DNA of 64,000 nucleotides, from positions 1,562 to 65,561 of the IMG/VR virus record IMGVR_UViG_3300021425_000032; one strand, 5' to 3'. Below are positions 55,783 to 64,000 of this stretch, in pieces (the stretch's first letter is position 1; the number at the start of each line of letters is the position of its first letter). Source of the DNA: a virus. Its lineage: Duplodnaviria > Caudoviricetes. Position numbers and translations under genes: made by a program. The notes beneath the pieces were generated by a model. It was not told where the DNA came from and did no database searches. It was given only the letters and a program-made list of their open reading frames with translations.

Positions 55783-55937
55783 GAATAGGTGCATTACTGT
55801 TGTTTTGCGGATTATTTGCATACTCCTTAATGGTACTATACCAACATGAGTCACAGCCAAAAGACGTATACATTATACATGAGCCGAGCATAATTACAGT
55901 AGAAGAACTATCACCAATGAGGGCAGAGAACGAATGA
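55770..55937 (+). CDS. 55-aa membrane-anchored protein (not in the ORF track)
   Basis: MVQLRIGALLLFCGLFAYSLMVLY...; its TGA overlaps the helicase ATG. Confidence 0.55.
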   Translation: MVQLRIGALLLFCGLFAYSLMVLYQHESQPKDVYIIHEPSIITVEELSPMRAENE

Positions 55938-57364
55938 GTACACGACAGAATACAGACTATGGATTTGATATACAAAAAGTATATCTAGAAATGATGATGA
56001 CAGACGCTGAAACGTTTGTAAGGTGTCAGGCTGTGTTCAACCCAGAAGCATTTGACAGACGTTTACAAGAGCCTGCAAAGTTTCTTAACAACTATGTTAC
56101 AGAACACAATGCTATGCCTACGTTTGATATGATAAATGCCGCATGCCCAGATGTAAAATTAAAGCACCCTGGCGAACTAATGGAGAATCATTATGATTGG
56201 CTACTATTAGAATTCGAAACGTTCTCTAGACACAAAGCACTTGAAGCGGCAATTCTTAAGGGGGCTGACTTATTAGAACAAGGTGAGTATGGACCCGTTG
56301 AAGATTTAGTAAAGAAGGCAGTACAAATTGGATTGCAAAAAGACTTGGGTACAGATTATTTTGCTGACCCTAGAACAAGACTAGAAGGTATTAAAGATAA
56401 AAACGGACAGATAAGCACAGGGTGGGCTAACTTAGATAAGAAATTATTTGGTGGGTTCAACAGAGGAGAGCTGAATATCTTTGCAGGTGGCTCAGGGTCT
56501 GGTAAGAGTTTGTTCTTGGCCAACTTGGGTGTTAACTTTGCACTAACAGGGTTGAACGTTGTATACTTAACGTTCGAACTTTCAGAAGCACTTGTTAGTA
56601 TGCGTGTTGATAGTATGACTACAGACATTCCAAGCAGAGACATTTTTAAAAGCATTGATGATGTTGAAATGAAAGTCAAGATGATTGGTAAGAAGTCAGG
56701 TGCATTCCAAGTCAAGTATATGCCCACAGGTAAGAACGCAAATGACATACGTTCGTATTTGAAAGAGTATGAGATTAAAACAGGCAAGAAGGTAGACGTA
56801 TTGCTAGTAGACTATTTGGACTTGATGCATCCTATAGCGGCTAAGATTAGTGCAGAAAACTTGTTTGTAAAAGACAAGTATGTATCGGAAGAGCTACGTA
56901 ACTTGGCTATGGAACTTAATACTATCTTTGTTACAGCATCACAGTTAAACAGAAGTTCAGTAGAAGAAATTGAATTTGATCACTCGCACATATCGGGTGG
57001 TATATCTAAGATCAATACAGCAGATAACTTGATTGGTATCTTTACAAGTAGAGCTATGCGTGAGCGTGGACGTTATCAGATACAGTTGATGAAGACACGT
57101 TCAAGTTCAGGTGTAGGACAAAAGATTGATCTAGAGTTTGATGTAGACAGTTTGCGTATTAGAGATCTAGACGAAGACGATGATAACACAAACAACTTTG
57201 GTACAAACAAGTCAACTATCTATGATAATTTGAAGCGTAGCTCTACTAGTCCTGATGTAAACGAAAATGCAGATCCTGGAGAAGGTGATACTGTAGGTAA
57301 AATACGTGCAGAAGCAGATTCAACAAAACTAAAACAATTTCTCAATAATCTAAGTGATGACTAA
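55934..57364 (+). CDS. Replicative DnaB-like helicase (gp41-like)
   Basis: GGSGSGKS, FELS, VDYLDL, TASQLNR, MKTR. Confidence 0.93.
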   Translation: MSTRQNTDYGFDIQKVYLEMMMTDAETFVRCQAVFNPEAFDRRLQEPAKFLNNYVTEHNAMPTFDMINAACPDVKLKHPGELMENHYDWLLLEFETFSRHKALEAAILKGADLLEQGEYGPVEDLVKKAVQIGLQKDLGTDYFADPRTRLEGIKDKNGQISTGWANLDKKLFGGFNRGELNIFAGGSGSGKSLFLANLGVNFALTGLNVVYLTFELSEALVSMRVDSMTTDIPSRDIFKSIDDVEMKVKMIGKKSGAFQVKYMPTGKNANDIRSYLKEYEIKTGKKVDVLLVDYLDLMHPIAAKISAENLFVKDKYVSEELRNLAMELNTIFVTASQLNRSSVEEIEFDHSHISGGISKINTADNLIGIFTSRAMRERGRYQIQLMKTRSSSGVGQKIDLEFDVDSLRIRDLDEDDDNTNNFGTNKSTIYDNLKRSSTSPDVNENADPGEGDTVGKIRAEADSTKLKQFLNNLSDD

Positions 57365-57446
57365 GTGTTTATTCTTTTTCGTCTTGGAACGAAAGAGCCA
57401 CGGTTAAATATTAAAAAAGTAAACAACGGAAGGACTATGCCACGTA

Positions 57447-57893
57447 ATGTTAACACTACTGAACCAAGAACACTACAGTTTTCTAGATGACGATCCAGTG
57501 CGTCCGCACATAGATCATGCGTGGAGATTAGAATACCCACGTGAAGTATATGCACTATACGAAGACAAGTATGCACAGTATGATGAAGTACTCACTGACA
57601 CACCATTGGCTATCATATGTGTGGCCTACTGTGATCGTATACCAACCTGTGAAGAAGATCTAAAACACACAGGCACAGAGGTAGCGGTATTCTACACAGT
57701 ATGGAGTTATTCAAAGGGTGCAGGCAGGACCATAGTAAATCAAACAGCAGATAGGATCAAACAAACACACAATCCTCAACAGTTTGTAACACTAAGTCCC
57801 AACACTGAAATGGCTGAACGCTTTCATTTGAGCAATGGAGCAGAGTTTTTAGCACGATACGACAACTGTCAAAACTTTGAATATCATCTATGA
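57447..57893 (+). CDS. GNAT-like protein
   Basis: AVFYTVWSYSKGAGR, FVTLSP, FHLSNGA; TAAATA at 57405. Confidence 0.5.
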   Translation: MLTLLNQEHYSFLDDDPVRPHIDHAWRLEYPREVYALYEDKYAQYDEVLTDTPLAIICVAYCDRIPTCEEDLKHTGTEVAVFYTVWSYSKGAGRTIVNQTADRIKQTHNPQQFVTLSPNTEMAERFHLSNGAEFLARYDNCQNFEYHL

Positions 57894-58159
57894 AGATCTA
57901 TTTGGGTCATATAGAATGCAAGTGGACACACAACGACCGACTAGAGTTGATATACTATCGTCAGAAGTACGGAGATGAACTCTATCGTGCTATTAATGTT
58001 GCAGGTGACATCACTCAAAGACGCTACAACTCACTAACACTGCCTGCGGACATGTACAAGCGTGTGGACTTTTATCTAACACCTGACTCAAGCAAAGCCG
58101 CAACACTGTTTATGCTGCGTTGGGCAGAACAATTGGATAAAGAACATGGGCCCATTTGA
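57890..58159 (+). CDS. Hypothetical protein
   Basis: ATGA overlap; ends in an FMLRW motif. Confidence 0.6.
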   Translation: MKIYLGHIECKWTHNDRLELIYYRQKYGDELYRAINVAGDITQRRYNSLTLPADMYKRVDFYLTPDSSKAATLFMLRWAEQLDKEHGPI

Positions 58160-58340
58160 ACTAGAACGACAGCGAGTTCGCAAACAACGACTAGAACGTA
58201 TAGCACGTGATCCTAGTCTTGATCCTCAAGTTGCTAGAATATGGCAACGTCTAGCTGACGAAGTGACCTTTGATGAAGCAGAATACAATCGAAGATGTGT
58301 GCAAATATTTCAGGGAAAGACTAGGGACAGGTTTTTCTAG
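58146..58340 (+). CDS. Hypothetical protein
   Basis: Overlaps the upstream ORF. Confidence 0.5.
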   Translation: MGPFELERQRVRKQRLERIARDPSLDPQVARIWQRLADEVTFDEAEYNRRCVQIFQGKTRDRFF

Positions 58341-58908
58341 CACTGCGTATAACTTCATAGTTGTTGGCCACAACAATTCCCATTACACCCGTTGCCTGTG
58401 CTAGTTCTTGATCACTAACAGTATTGATGTCTGAGTGTAGAGCATACAAAGGCAACAGTTTCAACAACAGCATTTGTTCTATACTGGGTTTTGCGGGCAA
58501 CAGAGGATTTTGTTCTTCTACACACTCGAAACGAGTGGTGGCATAGATAGTGCTGTAAACATCAAGAGCCTGTAGTAGATAGTATATGGTGATGTGACCC
58601 TTTGATGCAGGTTCTTTAAATTCAAATTCCGGCAGTATGGGCTTGCCAGTGTTGTACCAATCAACACCTATGTAGAGTTCATCACTCAATGGCGTACGAT
58701 CCTGCTGTATTGTGTAGAGGGGATCAAGCGTGTTGAATGTGTGTCTTACATCTGGTGGAGGTATATATATGTCATCTTCCGGTTGAGGTGCTGGTTCAAA
58801 CATCTGTTGAGGTTGTAGTTTGATGCCTGCTATGTAGAGTTCATTAGTTGATGAGTGTGCCACTGAGCTTAACAGTGTTAAGAATAGAATGATAGTCCCT
58901 CGTGCCAC
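58321..58908 (-). CDS. Secreted or membrane protein
   Basis: Signal-peptide-like N-terminus from the GTG at 58908 (TAAATA-TTAGT-GTG); LDVYST...EQNPLL. Confidence 0.6.
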   Translation of the reverse strand: MARGTIILFLTLLSSVAHSSTNELYIAGIKLQPQQMFEPAPQPEDDIYIPPPDVRHTFNTLDPLYTIQQDRTPLSDELYIGVDWYNTGKPILPEFEFKEPASKGHITIYYLLQALDVYSTIYATTRFECVEEQNPLLPAKPSIEQMLLLKLLPLYALHSDINTVSDQELAQATGVMGIVVANNYEVIRSARKTCP

Positions 58909-58927
58909 ACTAATATTTAGCAACGAA

Positions 58928-59005
58928 GCCCGCAAGGCCGCCGGCCAAAGCCGCGAAGCGGTTAACGCAAAAAGCGCGAAGCGCAAGCGATAGCGCAGCG
59001 GTTAA
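58928..59005. repeat. Cluster of GNA/GNNA mini-hairpins with an AGCGGTTAA direct repeat
   Basis: CCGC-GAA-GCGG, GCGC-GAA-GCGC, GC-GCAA-GC, GC-GATA-GC, GC-GCA-GC. Confidence 0.8.
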
Positions 59006-59218
59006 GCAGATTTTAGTATCAACATACACATGAACCTATAACGAACGTGTTTTGAACTAACCATAGCGACAGACGTCTATCAACGTGTTGCTTTCAGTCT
59101 AAAACAAAGGTTTGTAAAAAGATGACGTTTTAAAACTATATGTAGAGCGTGTATAACGTGTTTGTCACGCATACTAGCTCAAACGTAGCTATTAGTTCGT
59201 ATTCACGCTGTATGACGC

Positions 59219-59422
59219 TTATATGCACTCTAAGACGCCACTTCCTGTGTATGCTAGTGTAGCGTATGTACGTTCCTGTGCTGAGTCAAACACTAGTGTA
59301 CACGAGTCTGACTGTTCTGTGTATATACCACGTAGTAATAAGTCTGTAGCAAATGAAAATGTATTGATGTCTGCTATGTAATCTGTAACTGAGTCATCAT
59401 ATAGTATGTTGAGTAAATACAT
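59219..59422 (-). CDS. Hypothetical protein
   Basis: ATG at 59422 preceded by TAAGTA-N5. Confidence 0.5.
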   Translation of the reverse strand: MYLLNILYDDSVTDYIADINTFSFATDLLLRGIYTEQSDSCTLVFDSAQERTYATLAYTGSGVLECI

Positions 59423-59451
59423 ATAATTACTTAGCACAAAGGAACACTACT

Positions 59452-59619
59452 ATGTACACACTAGAACAACTGCATGCTTATCAACAGTGGATACAACATC
59501 AACAGGGTCATCCTACTGAGCCACAACACTTCCTTACCATTCTTATGAGAGACTTTGCTCTTACACACGGACAAGCACAAGCAGTGTACGATAGTCTAAG
59601 AGACTGGGAACTAAAGTAA
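59452..59619 (+). CDS. 55-aa hypothetical protein (not in the ORF track)
   Basis: TAAATA at 59414, AAGGA SD, MYTLEQLH...WELK*. Confidence 0.55.
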   Translation: MYTLEQLHAYQQWIQHQQGHPTEPQHFLTILMRDFALTHGQAQAVYDSLRDWELK

Positions 59620-59868
59620 TACTACTACCCAAGAGCTAAAGCTCTACACACTCGCTAGTCGCTTGTGTGTGCTTGCTTACGCTAGTAGTTGCCCGAAATG
59701 GGTTCTACAACCAAAAAAATTGGTCGCGCAAAAAATTGTGGTGAAGTACTTACAGAAGTGAGGTGGTGATTGCTACTGCACCGTTTTTTAAAAGTGTCCA
59801 TTAACGCTAAGTGCTTGTTTTTGTTAGATATTTTTTATAAGCCCCGACCCCCCTCGAGAAATAAAATT

Positions 59869-59898
59869 CAAAAAAAATCTCCCCGGAGGAAGATTTTT
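59869..59898 (-). terminator. Terminator of the leftward early region
   Basis: Minus strand reads AAAAATCTTCCTCCGGGGAGATTTTTTTT, a hairpin running into a T tract. Confidence 0.75.
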
Positions 59899-59958
59899 CT
59901 TTCTGTGTGTCCCCACAGTAGGTGCGGTCTTGCATACAGTGCCGCGTACTGTTGCAGA

Positions 59959-60309
59959 CTAGTCTAGTCGACTGCCTGCATAAGCTGTAAAGCCGTAGCC
60001 TTCTAGCACTCTAGCATAGGCTCTAGCACCAGCTTCTTTAATGCTAATGCTCTGCCCACCGTACCAGTTGCACCATTGGCTAAACACTCTGTTCCAGTTC
60101 TGGTCTATGCCAGCCTGCTTAAGAGCCTTGCCCATTTTGGTATTGCCCTTGAGCTTCTTACCATCATGTGCGTAGATGTCTACCCACGCAAAGCCACACG
60201 CATCCCAGTCCGAGTTACCGTTCTGTTGATATGCTTGCTCGCTTGCATTTACAGCCGCTTGCTGTGCTTTGTTTAGGATTACAGTTAGATCGTTTACAGT
60301 GTAGTTCAT
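59959..60309 (-). CDS. Early hypothetical protein
   Basis: DACGFAWV, QSISIKE; own promoter and GAGGGC RBS. Confidence 0.8.
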   Translation of the reverse strand: MNYTVNDLTVILNKAQQAAVNASEQAYQQNGNSDWDACGFAWVDIYAHDGKKLKGNTKMGKALKQAGIDQNWNRVFSQWCNWYGGQSISIKEAGARAYARVLEGYGFTAYAGSRLD

Positions 60310-60334
60310 ATTGTTTGCCCTCGCTATGTTTAAC

Positions 60335-60658
60335 TTACTCTACTAGTATAGCACCTTCGTGTGCATTGTCAACCCCTAATTCGCTGATTGACTCTATCTT
60401 TTTGTCTACAGTGTATGCACTATCAGTGTCTAGATATGCATCGTGTGCCAGTGCTTCTGCTTGTGCTTCTGAAGTTGCTGTGACTGTGACCACATGATGT
60501 TCTGTGATTGTTACCTGAACTTCATACTCTTGTCCTGGAATAGTGCCGTCTCCACCACATGCCCAACAGTCTTCTTCTAAGCCGTCTTGTTCATAGTACG
60601 TGTCGAGGTCGTAGCCTTCACCACAACACTCAACACACTCAACCTTTGGTGTAGCCAT
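60335..60658 (-). CDS. Early protein with DnaJ-type CxxCxGxG zinc motifs
   Basis: CVECCGEG and CWACGGDG. Confidence 0.75.
   Translation of the reverse strand: MATPKVECVECCGEGYDLDTYYEQDGLEEDCWACGGDGTIPGQEYEVQVTITEHHVVTVTATSEAQAEALAHDAYLDTDSAYTVDKKIESISELGVDNAHEGAILVE
60345..60381 (-). promoter_or_regulatory. Early promoter 1
   Basis: AATTAGGGG-TTGACA-16nt-TATACT with TGn extension. Confidence 0.85.
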
Positions 60659-61050
60659 TAAGCCATCACCGATGTTGTTGAAAAAGTCTGTGCATCAACT
60701 ATGTCATAGCTGATTGGCTCACAAGGTTCAAAGCCAAAGCCTGCTACCTCGAACCAGTCTTGGAAGCCTTCACCGTCGTCTACGATCATCACATCGCCAA
60801 CGCTTGTGCTTCTTAGGCCATAAGCCTTGCCGTTGTGTTGGATAAGGGGAGCAATGACTTCTACATCATCGTTCGCATCAGCACCGATCTTCATGCTCCA
60901 GCTACCATCAACATTGTTGGTGTATCTGTAGGCATACTCAGTGGCTTCAAAAAGATCCATGCCTGAGGTTGTTACCTTTGCAACAGCCTTAGGAGTTTCG
61001 CCCTCTTCTAAGAAACTTGCATGGATTACGGTTATAGTAAAGTTTTTCAT
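60658..61050 (-). CDS. Early hypothetical protein
   Basis: RSTSVGDV, VAGFGF; GAGGGC RBS. Confidence 0.8.
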   Translation of the reverse strand: MKNFTITVIHASFLEEGETPKAVAKVTTSGMDLFEATEYAYRYTNNVDGSWSMKIGADANDDVEVIAPLIQHNGKAYGLRSTSVGDVMIVDDGEGFQDWFEVAGFGFEPCEPISYDIVDAQTFSTTSVMA

Positions 61051-61084
61051 ATTGTGCCCTCACACTTTAATTTAATATACTGCT

Positions 61085-61122
61085 AGTATAGCCTCAAACT
61101 CTCTCGTTGTCAACCCCTAATT
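61085..61122 (-). promoter_or_regulatory. Early promoter 2
   Basis: AATTAGGGG-TTGACA-17nt-TATACT. Confidence 0.85.
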
Positions 61123-61124
61123 TT

Positions 61125-61159
61125 AAAAAAGAAAAACCCCGCACGAGGCGAGGTTCTTC
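61125..61159 (-). terminator. Rho-independent terminator
   Basis: Minus strand GAAGAACCTCGC-CTCGT-GCGGGGTTTTTC-TTTTTT. Confidence 0.8.
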
Positions 61160-61290
61160 CCGGTGACATGCAGAGCGTGAGGGCTACGCTTGATCTGCTC
61201 CACCTAGGCTCGTGGATGAGGGCGGTCCACTTGCCTTAACGACCACTTGGGGAGGGCACCCGTTAGTGGTCATGTGCTGTGAGAGGAGCA
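61125..61290 (-). ncRNA. Candidate multi-hairpin regulatory RNA with three GCCCUC (GAGGGC on +) loops; strand not certain
   Basis: GAGGGC at 61179, 61218 and 61252, each enclosed by a different stem; ends in a minus-strand terminator. Confidence 0.6.
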
Positions 61291-62301
61291 TTAGGATGCT
61301 CTACTCATCACAGTATTCTCTGCCATTGCTTCCCACTTGGTAGGAAATGCTTTGGCCAAGTCGGCTATCTTAAGTACTGAACGCAAGCTCAGCTCCCTCA
61401 GCTTAGACTTGTTGATATCGATGTAGTCGATGATGTCTTGTACAGTTTCTTCTGGCAAGCCATACTCGTCTAGCATTCCGTCAGTAACGATCTGCTTGAT
61501 ACGCAGCATCTTCTCACGGTCTGTGTCAATAGTCAAGTCAATGTAGTGACATCTACTTTCTAGTGCTTCTAGGTGATCACGCATCTTCTTGCTCTTAACG
61601 TTTTCAAACTTGATGTTGGTGATAAAGATTGCACCACCTTTGAACTCGAATGAATCCGGCACACCTTCGTTTCTCAACTTGAATGAATCAGTGTTCCAAT
61701 GGATACGTCTAGTCTTCTTAGAGTCTAGCGCAGCTTTTAGGATGTTCAGTGATAGTTCATCTGAGAACACTGAGTCACAGTCATCGAACACCAGTACATT
61801 GTCTTTGTCTGCGTAGTTGAACAGTTTACAGTAGAGTCCAATAGCACTCATAGCACCTTTGACCACCTGATACTTCGCAGGACGATCTCCTAAGGTTGCA
61901 ATTAATTCATGTGCGCCTAGTACTTTTTCGACACCATGTGACTTACCTACACCCGGAGGACCTGAAACAATCATTGCACGTACATCACCTCGCTTGCAGG
62001 CTTTGGTCATGTCTTCGAGCATGTCGAATCGTTCGCGCAATCTTTCGATTGTCTCTTCGTCGGTCTCCTCACGGGTGGTGGTGGCCACGGAGCTATCAAC
62101 CAGCTCGTAGCTTGACGGGCTATCACACTTGATCTTAATATTTCGATCAGGGAAGCCTGCTACCGCAGTACCATCGACTGTGACGTAGCCACCACCGGCG
62201 CCAACCTTAAATTCAGATACCATAGGAAATACCATTCCTGTCATATCAACGTCTTTGCCTCTAATTTTGTAGAAGCCCTCTTTCATCTTTACTTTTTGCA
62301 T
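61291..62301 (-). CDS. AAA+ P-loop ATPase
   Basis: GPPGVGKS, LVFDDCD, IFITN, LESRC; start moved to MQKV at 62301 (GAGGGC RBS). Confidence 0.88.
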   Translation of the reverse strand: MQKVKMKEGFYKIRGKDVDMTGMVFPMVSEFKVGAGGGYVTVDGTAVAGFPDRNIKIKCDSPSSYELVDSSVATTTREETDEETIERLRERFDMLEDMTKACKRGDVRAMIVSGPPGVGKSHGVEKVLGAHELIATLGDRPAKYQVVKGAMSAIGLYCKLFNYADKDNVLVFDDCDSVFSDELSLNILKAALDSKKTRRIHWNTDSFKLRNEGVPDSFEFKGGAIFITNIKFENVKSKKMRDHLEALESRCHYIDLTIDTDREKMLRIKQIVTDGMLDEYGLPEETVQDIIDYIDINKSKLRELSLRSVLKIADLAKAFPTKWEAMAENTVMSRAS

Positions 62302-62337
62302 AGTTTTGCCCTCTCGCAATGTTTAATTTATATACAC

Positions 62338-62366
62338 AGTATATGATATATCTGTGCGCCTGTCAA
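62338..62366 (-). promoter_or_regulatory. Early promoter 3
   Basis: TTGACA-17nt-TATACT. Confidence 0.85.
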
Positions 62367-62539
62367 CCAAAAATCTTACCAAATAACCAAAAAAATCCTA
62401 TGAAGCCTCCAAGTGCTATTGCGCCATACATGAAACTGTAGAAGCATTGCACCAGGAACGGTATCCGGGTGTTACAAGCGTGACACTTGCTCGCAAAGAA
62501 CTCTTTGTCAGTCTTGAAACACGCCGGACACAAAGCCAT
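62363..62539 (-). CDS. 58-aa zinc-ribbon plus transmembrane protein (not in the ORF track)
   Basis: MALCPAC...KCHAC...GAIALGGFIGFFWLFG; TAATG overlap with the upstream gene. Confidence 0.65.
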   Translation of the reverse strand: MALCPACFKTDKEFFASKCHACNTRIPFLVQCFYSFMYGAIALGGFIGFFWLFGKIFG

Positions 62540-62913
62540 TATGCAAATTCCTTATCGAGCGTCTCTTGGTCGACATCTTCGAACACAGGTGCTTGTGGAA
62601 AGCCTGCTTCGAACGCCGTATCAATTGCCGCTTGTGGAACCACTACTGGCTCTGGTGCTTGATACCTTTTGAAGTACCTCACTGGACATGTATCCCAGTT
62701 CTTGCCTTCCTTGATCTGCACAGTGTTGCCCAGTGCTTCTTGCGCCTTGACATAAGTCACAGCGTCTTGGTCTTCTTCTAGATAAGTGGTCTTACCTTTG
62801 TAGAATGAATAAGATGTAATCTTATCCGCGATACCGAGCTCGACGAGCTCTTTTGTTTTTACAGCCAGCCAGCCATGTCCGCCATCTGAATGCATCATTT
62901 TAGTGATTATCAT
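62539..62913 (-). CDS. Early hypothetical protein
   Basis: HSDGGHGWLAV, YLEED.D. Confidence 0.8.
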   Translation of the reverse strand: MIITKMMHSDGGHGWLAVKTKELVELGIADKITSYSFYKGKTTYLEEDQDAVTYVKAQEALGNTVQIKEGKNWDTCPVRYFKRYQAPEPVVVPQAAIDTAFEAGFPQAPVFEDVDQETLDKEFA

Positions 62914-63245
62914 ACTGATACTCCCTTCGTTATGTTGCGACCAGTTTCAGGAGACACCACCATAGCTGTCTTCTTGACGAAGTCAGCATAGTCTTGGTCC
63001 TCTGGGAGGTCGTTAACCCATTCCTCGAATGTCTTCACATCCGTTGGAAACTCTTTAAAGCCTAGGCCATTATCTGCGAAAGCAGCCATAACGAATGCCA
63101 TTGCATCCGCAGGACGATCGACGCCGTCCACGATGTAGTCGGAACCACCCTTGAACTTCCAGTATGAATGCCCCTCGGCATACTTACCTGACTCACAATG
63201 TGCGCCATAGTTCTCAAGAATTTGTGTTGTTACTACGAATTTCAT
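62910..63245 (-). CDS. Early hypothetical protein
   Basis: TQ..ENYGAH, YWKFKGG; GAGGGT RBS. Confidence 0.8.
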   Translation of the reverse strand: MKFVVTTQILENYGAHCESGKYAEGHSYWKFKGGSDYIVDGVDRPADAMAFVMAAFADNGLGFKEFPTDVKTFEEWVNDLPEDQDYADFVKKTAMVVSPETGRNITKGVSV

Positions 63246-63283
63246 TTGCTACCCTCTTTATCGTTTGCCCTAACTATACATAC

Positions 63284-63320
63284 AGTATAGCATCAATTAT
63301 CTCTTTGTCAACCCCTATTT
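63284..63320 (-). promoter_or_regulatory. Early promoter 4
   Basis: AAATAGGGG-TTGACA-16nt-TATACT with TGn extension. Confidence 0.85.
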
Positions 63321-63506
63321 CACCCAAACGTGGTGAAATTTCTTAGGCATATTCTCACATGAGAAGTTCGTGTCGCCGTAGTTGACCACCTCTACACATG
63401 CACCTGTCTCATAAGACATATGTACATCTGGAAGTGAAAATGTGTAGTCCACTGCGTATAGTAGACCAGCCGTTGCTATTAGTGTTACTGCTATGATTGT
63501 TTTCAT
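63315..63506 (-). CDS. Small membrane-anchored early protein
   Basis: Hydrophobic N-terminus; GAGGGC RBS. Confidence 0.7.
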   Translation of the reverse strand: MKTIIAVTLIATAGLLYAVDYTFSLPDVHMSYETGACVEVVNYGDTNFSCENMPKKFHHVWVK

Positions 63507-63537
63507 TGCGTTGCCCTCGCTTTCATATTATGTGTAT

Positions 63538-63575
63538 ACTATAGCACAGCCCAAATGATTTGTCAACCCCTAATT
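63538..63575 (-). promoter_or_regulatory. Early promoter 5
   Basis: AATTAGGGG-TTGACA-17nt-TATAGT with TGn extension. Confidence 0.8.
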
Positions 63576-63877
63576 TAGGCATTCTGTGACACAAAATACC
63601 TAGGGTATTCTGTGTTCTTTTTTAAGAACCAACGCTCTAGCACAGGACCACCCTCGTCCTCGTCTACTATAATATAGCACACGGTCTTCTTGACATTCGC
63701 ATAGCGATATCCTTGCTGTCCACCTATTTGGCGGTCACCTACCCAAACGATGTGCGGGTAGTATTCGCGATTGCCTTCGAACGCAGGACAGTCATTGACT
63801 GAATACTCAAATGAGTTGCCCACTTCTTTTTCAACAAAGCATCCAATTGGATCTCTGGTGTAGGTGTAGTAACCCAT
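63575..63877 (-). CDS. Early hypothetical protein
   Basis: GAGGAGG SD; VKKTV.YI.VDED. Confidence 0.75.
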   Translation of the reverse strand: MGYYTYTRDPIGCFVEKEVGNSFEYSVNDCPAFEGNREYYPHIVWVGDRQIGGQQGYRYANVKKTVCYIIVDEDEGGPVLERWFLKKNTEYPRYFVSQNA

Positions 63878-64000
63878 TACACTTCCTCCTCATCATGAAA
63901 GTTTGCATCATCATCGCTGAAGTCTTCTACAAGCTCTTCTACTTCGCGGCCTTCTGCGAACAACATCAACTCTACGGCTAACATACGAGCCTGATGACGA
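63877..64000 (-). CDS. C-terminal end of a gene that starts beyond the window
   Basis: Open frame RHQARMLAVELM...DEEEV*, with the stop overlapping the next ATG. Confidence 0.6.
   Translation of the reverse strand, partial: RHQARMLAVELMLFAEGREVEELVEDFSDDDANFHDEEEV

Follow-up and report, generated by a model that had tools for sequence, protein, structure and literature searches.

A candidate anti-ribosome-binding-site RNA in the 3' untranslated region of an ATPase gene in the early cluster of an uncultured jumbo phage

The window considered here, a stretch of 64,000 nucleotides that comprises bases 1562-65561 of the 65,561-bp viral record IMGVR_UViG_3300021425_000032 (IMG/VR, classed linear), includes a minus-strand gene cluster in the last 4 kb of the record, where an AAA ATPase gene is followed by a structured 3' untranslated region (3'UTR). 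With moderate confidence, and from sequence comparison, this 3'UTR is read as an anti-ribosome-binding-site regulatory RNA, icaR-like or c4-like, that would mask the ribosome-binding sites (RBSs) of the probably early genes of the cluster. The putative partners, given as leader/3'UTR, are GAGGGCA/UGCCCUC in the clade of the window (clade A), GGAGCGAA/UUCGCUCC in the sister clade B, and CAUCCACGCAAA/UUUGCGUGGAUG in the third, more distant clade C, and in every clade the element is tied by synteny to the ATPase gene; three distinct sequence pairs at one syntenic position are hard to explain except by selected pairing. An earlier note on this DNA had taken the leader motifs for targets of the element at 61125-61290 and had attributed the conservation of the bases beyond GAGG to a second reader, and this claim is now supported by the exact complementarity to three loops, by a k-mer analysis of 55 loci giving GAGGGC at the RBS and its reverse complement ahead of promoters, by the concentration of GCCCTC in the ATPase 3'UTR, and by the clade-specific switches of both partners.

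The motif copies and the promoters that precede them in the cluster, together with one further copy ahead of a replication gene, are the following.

63538..63566, minus strand: promoter P1, TTGACA-N17-TATAGT with ATTAGGGG ahead, -35 at 63566
63512..63518, minus strand: GAGGGCA RBS, 5 nt before ATG 63506 (63-aa open reading frame (ORF), phrog_8293)
63284..63311, minus strand: promoter P2, -35 at 63311
63266..63272, minus strand: TAGGGCA, 5'-proximal in the P2 leader
63251..63256, minus strand: GAGGGT RBS, 5 nt before ATG 63245
62338..62366, minus strand: promoter P3, -35 at 62366
62307..62313, minus strand: GAGGGCA RBS, 5 nt before ATG 62301 of the ATPase gene
61085..61113, minus strand: promoter P4, -35 at 61113
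61055..61061, minus strand: GAGGGCA RBS, 4 nt before ATG 61050
60345..60372, minus strand: promoter P5, -35 at 60372
60316..60322, minus strand: GAGGGCA RBS, 6 nt before ATG 60309
55919..55925, plus strand: GAGGGCA, 8 nt before ATG 55934 of a DnaB-like helicase gene, in another transcription unit

The four minus-strand GAGGGCA copies (plus-strand GCCCTC at 60317, 61056, 62308 and 63513), as well as the GAGGGT and the upstream TAGGGCA of the fifth cassette, are located where the earlier note had placed them, while its spacing of 5-7 nt has to be corrected to 6, 4, 5 and 5 nt for the ATGs 60309, 61050, 62301 and 63506. Within the cluster, (G)AGGG(C/T) is found before five of the five promoter-proximal genes and before none of the four others; the RBSs of the internal genes with ATG 62913, 62539 and 60658 and of the gene at 63877 read AAGGGAG, AAGGAA, GGTGAT and GAGGAGG, and ordinary AGGA/GGAG sites serve the internal operon genes and the remaining 65.5-kb record. 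All four sense GAGGGCA 7-mers of the cluster are the RBSs of promoter-proximal genes, the 6-mer GAGGGC having two extra copies within coding sequence (62280 and 61005), and all 10 GAGGGC/GCCCTC sites of the record fall within 55919-63518. The count against shuffled sequence gave 6 GAGGGCA in the window versus 2.85 expected, with 5/100 shuffles reaching 6; the signal lies in the position of the motif, not in its number. The avoidance of the motif outside the cluster (0 in the first 56,561 bases versus 1.9-7.4 expected analytically, by Markov order) was rejected as evidence, being too model-dependent.

A Shine-Dalgarno (SD) sequence is a purine-rich core complementary to the 3' end of the 16S rRNA (CCUCC) and located 5-10 nt before the start codon. 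In the window the GAGG core ends 6-8 nt short of the ATG, the canonical anti-SD CCUCC being assumed, which may not be that of the host. The GCA that follows GAGG cannot pair with the canonical anti-SD, so that anti-SD pairing leaves conserved bases unexplained. The weak hairpins that the earlier note saw around three motif copies can indeed be drawn; the leaders, however, have folding energies of just -1.4 to -4.2 kcal/mol, which differ from those of shuffles by no more than about 1.4 standard deviations, and only the P1 hairpin appears in the minimum-energy fold. A stem of at least 4 bp flanks GAGGGC in 85 of 345 sites of the relatives, and the leader hairpins are negligible.

The five promoters are of the sigma70 type (TTGACA-N16/17-TATACT/TATAGT), one ahead of each motif leader, and score 11/12 of the consensus, which makes them the top 5 of the 18 promoter-like matches in 57000-64000. 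Since no terminator lies between P1, P2 or P3 and that at 61125..61161, all three transcripts should end in the ATPase 3'UTR element, the features of which are listed below together with the terminator of the P4 and P5 transcripts.

61291..62301, minus strand: AAA ATPase gene, 336 aa, phrog_1250 match (E 8.5e-83)
61239..61273, minus strand: 3'UTR hairpin 1, loop ACGGGUGCCCUCCCCAA, GCCCUC at 61257-52
61206..61236, minus strand: 3'UTR hairpin 2, 9-nt loop CCGCCCUCA, GCCCUC at 61223-18
61162..61204, minus strand: 3'UTR hairpin 3, apical loop AGCCCUC, GCCCUC at 61184-79
61125..61161, minus strand: intrinsic terminator, end of the P1-P3 transcripts
59870..59901, minus strand: terminator without GCCCUC, end of the P4/P5 transcripts

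The 166-nt untranslated stretch between the ATPase stop codon and promoter P4 (61290-61125, minus strand) folds at -66.9 kcal/mol into three hairpins and the intrinsic terminator (z = -3.85; 0/200 shuffles equal). The only sense-strand GCCCTC copies of the early cluster are the three of this element, each in a loop, and the sole further minus-strand GCCCTC of the record, at 55924, is the helicase RBS read on the opposite strand. The stem of hairpin 1 differs on both sides in the two relatives closest to the window, the loops being identical: it reads GACCAC/GUGGUC in the window, GGCCGC/GCGGUC in L007 and GGACUG/CAGUCC in L074; hairpin 3 belongs to the widely conserved GCCCUCACGCUCUGC module. 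The leader of the ATPase gene, GAGAGGGCAAAAC, is complementary to the three GCCCUC loops in the 3'UTR of its own gene, which is the arrangement of the icaR type, and GUGAGGGCAC at the leader of 61050 could make as many as 8 bp with loop 1 and likewise with loop 3, while the GAGGGT of 63245 is still able to pair with GCCCUC because of U-G wobble. When the 88 gene leaders of the record were ranked by predicted duplex energy with the element, the leaders of 63506, 61050, 63245, 62301 and 55934 took ranks 1, 2, 4, 8 and 9, the top two duplexes having -23.9 and -22.9 kcal/mol versus a median of -12.9 kcal/mol.

The same pair of motifs is found among the relatives by unbiased enrichment. The ATPase protein scan of IMG/VR gave 136 related stretches, the best 80 of which were kept, with 70 remaining after dereplication; clade A comprises 55 dereplicated loci with an ATPase identity of 65-93%. 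In the 352 promoter-proximal leaders of this clade, the top 6-mer in the RBS region was GAGGGC (228 versus 3.2 expected), and in the 150 nt before promoters it was GCCCTC (113 versus 25.2 expected). GAGGGC was present at -18..-3 in 205/313 promoter-proximal ORFs versus 52/480 others, its end lying 2-9 nt before the ATG (mode 3), and the leaders were A-rich 3' of the motif. The leader flanks hold at most 0.6 bit per position and the leader length varies from 9 to 97 nt, and it is thus the motif, not a copied cassette, that is conserved. As for the partner, 1-5 copies of GCCCTC were found in 55/55 ATPase 3'UTRs, and 150 of the 181 sense copies, a count that leaves out the Walker-A coding site, were located within -50..+300 of the ATPase stop codon. 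Loop-closing stems of at least 5 bp surrounded 90/181 of these sites (18% with shuffled flanks) and stems of at least 8 bp 39/181 (1.2% with shuffled flanks), the stems being of many different sequences. It is, accordingly, hardly conceivable that there is no second reader and that GAGGGCA is just the favoured strong SD context of the clade, with a coincidental match in the loops: the window count alone is not significant, as such a view would have it, but the reverse complement is itself the top k-mer, both partners switch by clade, and the anti-motif is concentrated in one 3'UTR.

The sister clade B (9 loci) uses AAGGAGCGA as the RBS in nearly all leaders, and its 3'UTRs contain the core CGCUCC in 9/9 loci and exactly two GAUUCGCUCC(C) in 8/9, one at the ATPase stop codon and one in the terminator loop, with one copy reading GGACUCGCUCC in L086; no GCCCTC was found in the ATPase 3'UTRs of these 9 loci. 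In a swap test that combined 3'UTRs with leaders, a perfect complement of at least 7 nt was present in a fraction of 0.651 (AxA) and 0.487 (BxB) of the matched combinations versus 0.109 (AxB) and 0.094 (BxA) of the mismatched ones, and the reverse-complement, reversed, shuffled and random-window controls ranged from 0.065 to 0.24.

Clade C is represented by 71 loci, obtained from a scan that matched 352 stretches, of which the best 80 were used. Here the ATPase leader reads CAUCCACGCAAAGG, and its match, UUUGCGUGGAUG, is found in a hairpin loop; this hairpin and a terminator form a module 20 to 1,670 nt beyond the 3' end of the gene. A leader/downstream-loop complement of 10-14 nt was found in 52/71 loci versus 1/71 in the upstream control and 3/71 in the reversed control; these figures come from the longest-complement measure, since anchoring on the first downstream GCGTG picks unrelated sites. 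The pairs change in a compensatory manner (CAUCC/GGAUG and CAUUCC/GGAAUG; CGCAAA/UUUGCG to CGCGAA/UUCGCG), and the stems co-vary as well (ACCGAC/GUCGGU, ACCAAC/GUUGGU, ACCAGU/ACUGGU).

Such changes bear on two explanations in which a protein is the reader. In the first, a DNA-level signal, one asymmetric protein-binding site would be present in both orientations, and the apparent co-variation would be two copies of it changing together. Formally, the reverse-complement pair is the same double-stranded site and all three clades fit, but the chance of this seems very small, because the orientation is strict (sense copies 2-9 nt before starts, 150/181 antisense copies in the ATPase 3'UTR and mostly in hairpin loops), the stems around the loops co-vary, and T is the commonest substitute for C opposite G, though in the leaders A outnumbers T almost fourfold (45% versus 12%; the base after (A/G)AGGG is C in 266, T in 19, A in 10 and G in 5 of 300 of the 352 leaders). 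In the second, a phage protein, either a RegB-like endoribonuclease or a RegA-like translational repressor, would read GAGGGCA in the message, the loops being unrelated or decoys. T4 RegB, which cuts GGAG in early SDs, is a precedent, and its extended consensus is A-rich, as are the present leaders downstream of the motif; however, the motif is GAGGGC, not GGAG, and such a protein leaves the complementary loops and the co-variation unexplained, because a protein cannot read a sequence and its complement alike, which makes this explanation decidedly improbable. The protein repressor that the earlier note had offered as an alternative found no backing either, as no REGB_T4 (PF10715) match was obtained in 5 large relatives, one of them 100% complete, a negative that is weak because the control set was without any positive.

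The proposed anti-RBS RNA would work as follows. GAGGGCA would consist of the 4-nt SD core GAGG and of extra bases forming the address that an antisense RNA reads. Transcription from P1, P2 and P3 alike would finish in the ATPase 3'UTR, whose three hairpins would display (N)GCCCUC(N) loops, and these loops could pair over 6-8 GC-rich bp with the open, unstructured early leaders, that of the ATPase gene included. The pairing would cover the SD and would, therefore, keep the 30S subunit off in competition. The structured 3' end would accumulate in the course of early transcription and would cap or shut off translation of the address-bearing gene cluster, in a negative feedback. That leader and loop RNAs pair in the cell is suggested by co-variation; the sign of the effect is presumably repression, not activation, and the element may act in trans on all leaders, beyond its own in cis. 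More tentatively, and somewhat short of what we would call probable, the motif may be an address code, by which the multi-loop tail of an early message switches off the whole set of early leaders together, as an RNA counterpart of T4 RegB with a clade-specific lock-and-key co-evolution.

The extent of the address may be assessed in the complete relative G001 (357,559 bp, 100% complete), where 4 of the 19 plus-strand GCCCTC lie in the 120 nt after the ATPase gene, 13/22 plus-strand GAGGGC lie within 6.4-25.4 kb, and at least 13 genes at 11.9-23.4 kb have (A/G)AGGGCA before the ATG. The promoter-proximal genes outside this cluster use other sites; the motif being confined to one cluster, the address marks one early cluster and not every early gene, and the notion of a mark of all early genes of the phage is not supported, the mark being confined in this genome to about 13 genes clustered around that for the ATPase. 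It was also observed that most cluster leaders of this genome at 12.6-23.4 kb have an additional TAGGGCAAAC on the 5' side, within a few bases downstream of the -10 box, the counterpart of which in the window is 63272-63266 in the P2 leader; with the 5'-proximal TAGGGCAAAC and the RBS copy, each such leader would offer two potential pairing sites to a multi-loop RNA.

Several observations weigh against control of many leaders by the ATPase 3'UTR. Its complementarity is the same for its own leader (mean 7.05 nt) and for the other leaders (7.02 nt; 43 loci), and, as they match equally, these data do not separate cis autoregulation from trans control. One RNA facing the transcripts of many strong promoters poses a stoichiometry problem. 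The leader of 60309 is outside the 14 best duplexes of the 88 leaders, and the helicase GAGGGCA is absent from the homologue in G001, so that its membership is uncertain and it may be due to chance. Many leaders of that complete relative have AAGGGCA with the loops still GCCCUC, and in the clade A outlier L069 the RBS is mostly replaced by AGGAGAUC, with GCCCUC-like 3'UTR motifs kept. Finally, exactly one leader motif and one anti-motif are present in 51/71 loci of clade C, and the presence of the putative target in only the ATPase leader there favours an origin in cis. Beside this, the early leaders of L069 have a long distinct consensus, GCTCTTCCTTCCAAAACTCCAACTAGGAGATCCA-ATG, and its ATPase 3'UTR still starts with GCCCTC, which suggests that this lineage replaced the address.

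From these points it could be argued that the 3'UTR is a brake in cis only, which pairs solely with its own ATPase leader, the other leaders sharing GAGGGCA through copied, recombination-homogenised cassettes similar to PeSL. The single pair per locus in clade C, the constant company of the element and the ATPase gene, the equal complementarity to own and other leaders, and the PeSL cassettes documented in T4-like phages (PMC4122927) all agree with it. Nevertheless, we regard this explanation as rather unlikely, since cassette copying would keep the flanks too, and the leader flanks hold at most 0.6 bit at lengths of 9-97 nt, while the motif persists in 205/313 promoter-proximal ORFs with the ATPase identity down to about 65%. 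Moreover, the address is kept in hundreds of unrelated leaders, and the more putative targets there are, the more loops are present (1 loop in clade C, 2 loops in clade B and 1-5 in clade A). In 27/43 loci the element has a longer match to some other leader than to that of the ATPase gene, and the loops of G001 are better suited to the GAGGGCA of further genes than to the AAGGGCA of their own.

With respect to known systems, the icaR mRNA of Staphylococcus aureus reportedly has in its 3'UTR a C-rich anti-SD motif that is complementary to its own SD region, and in this type of interaction the pairing reportedly lowers translation or leads to cleavage by RNase III. The ATPase 3'UTR has the same relation to its own message, with a translational block as the expected outcome, but it belongs to a phage, presents the motif in 1-5 hairpin loops instead of one stretch, is without sequence relation to icaR, and faces an RBS that further promoter-proximal genes in the cluster have in common. 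In phages P1/P7, the c4 antisense RNA is a structured RNA that is cut from the transcript of its own target and whose loops pair over the RBS. It is thus also a phage-encoded structured RNA with loops complementary to RBS-covering sequences; however, c4 precedes its target, within the immunity operon of temperate phages, while the present element belongs, as a 3'UTR, to a jumbo phage of lytic type and has many candidate targets, and the C4 Rfam covariance model had no match in the window. RNAIII and RsaE/RoxS of S. aureus pair through C-rich loops with the G-rich SDs of many messages, to which the several C-rich hairpin loops described here are similar, except that those RNAs are host-encoded, are not 3'UTRs of target messages and use UCCC/CCCC motifs. 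A trans-acting sRNA derived from a 3'UTR is a stable 3' fragment that builds up and controls other messages through base pairing; of these features, complementarity to the other leaders is seen here.

In T4, RegB cuts GGAG in early SDs with the extended A-rich consensus GGAGRAYARAA (PMC3014915), and there, as for RegA, the SD sequence marks a temporal class of messages for inactivation by a second reader, which is a protein nuclease in T4 and a candidate RNA in the phage considered here. The PeSL cassettes of T4-like phages are described (PMC4122927) as repeated units of a stem-loop, a sigma70-like early promoter, an SD and a start codon in plastic regions. Similar units of a near-consensus sigma70 promoter, SD and start codon precede small ORFs of the plastic early region here, the promoter-SD-ATG order being repeated 5 times in the cluster of the window, but a stem-loop stands ahead of P4 only among the 5 promoters, the stem-loop terminators being confined to the ATPase 3'UTR and the cluster end; PeSLs are described as recombination substrates and not as targets of an antisense RNA. 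No prior description of the element was found in searches of the full-text literature. No Rfam family reached the gathering score in the window, and only chance-level matches to unrelated families were obtained in 59700-64000 at E<=5; a pattern search with the hairpin-1 loop found no relatives beyond the three contigs known, and a two-motif gapped pattern found none among the collected loci. Two comparisons were set aside: PA5oct has no comparable 3'UTR, because the next gene begins only 43 nt after its ATPase homologue, and GAGGGC in the JG004 paper is a terminator stem only.

The record, with a completeness of 18% by the CheckV estimate, encodes a 1166-aa tail-sheath protein and the DnaB-like helicase, which has 52% identity to the helicases of PA5oct-like jumbo phages, and is therefore a fragment of the genome of an uncultured jumbo myophage and not a whole genome. 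Megablast and blastn of 59800-64000 against the phage collection gave no match to cultured close relatives, and protein searches reached at most 40-52% identity, to PA5oct-like, Atu_ph07-like and T4-like phages; the relatives of the ATPase include the gene annotated nrdC.10 in Escherichia phage JS98. Most genes of the record are on the plus strand, many with AGGA/GGAG-type RBSs. Upstream of many plus-strand starts (e.g., ATG 5325, 15176, 20424, 21149 and 23672), at 10-25 nt, there are ATAAATACTA-like motifs similar to T4-type late promoters (TATAAATA), and it is because of the sigma70-type promoters in the cluster and the T4-like late-promoter motifs before structural genes that the cluster genes are labelled early. 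The phage is present in RNA libraries: metatranscriptome contigs from four RNA runs match parts of the cluster, several X15 pieces with 0 differences, and one 270-nt contig of X18 spans 60977-61246; being contigs, these data give neither levels nor RNA ends. Contigs of related strains that stop at the ATPase 3' end have a high word depth (107 in X16), but contigs cannot rank the parts of a message or exclude DNA.

Some further observations were made in the cluster and around it. Directly 5' of the -35 box, ATTAGGGG or ATAGGGG is found in four of the five window promoters (63574-63567, 63319-63312, 61121-61114 and 60380-60373, minus strand); many relatives keep this element as AAATTAGGGG, at least 120 IMG/VR stretches contain TTAGGGGTTGACAA as an exact 14-mer, and the element may be UP-like or a factor site. 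A second recurrent GCCCTC context, GGGGAGCAANCCGCCCTCANNGTAAGACT, lies outside the 3'UTR, 1-2 kb upstream of the ATPase gene (L024, L035, L039, L045 and others), and may be another element or conserved coding sequence. The G+C content of 60001-64000, the minus-strand early cluster, is 45.6% versus 34-41% (about 36%) in the remaining record, which could be due to a different origin or a different constraint. Between the plus-strand replication genes and the cluster, the window has about 2 kb (57900-59950) with only short or doubtful ORFs and without tRNA or Rfam matches, and no tRNAs were found in the whole window.

Taken as an element, the feature is a new form of a known regulatory principle. 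In metagenomic phage contigs, the GAGGGCA-type RBSs and the ATPase 3'UTR element may be used to recognise the early cluster; the three lock-and-key pairs, each specific to a clade, would be ready-made orthogonal translational switches, and the model may be tested with simple reporter constructs although no member has been cultured. If the pairing is functional, the sequence of an RBS would carry regulatory information beyond the recruitment of the ribosome, and widespread uncultured jumbo phages of marine, salt-marsh and freshwater habitats would time their early expression by an RNA and not by a protein.

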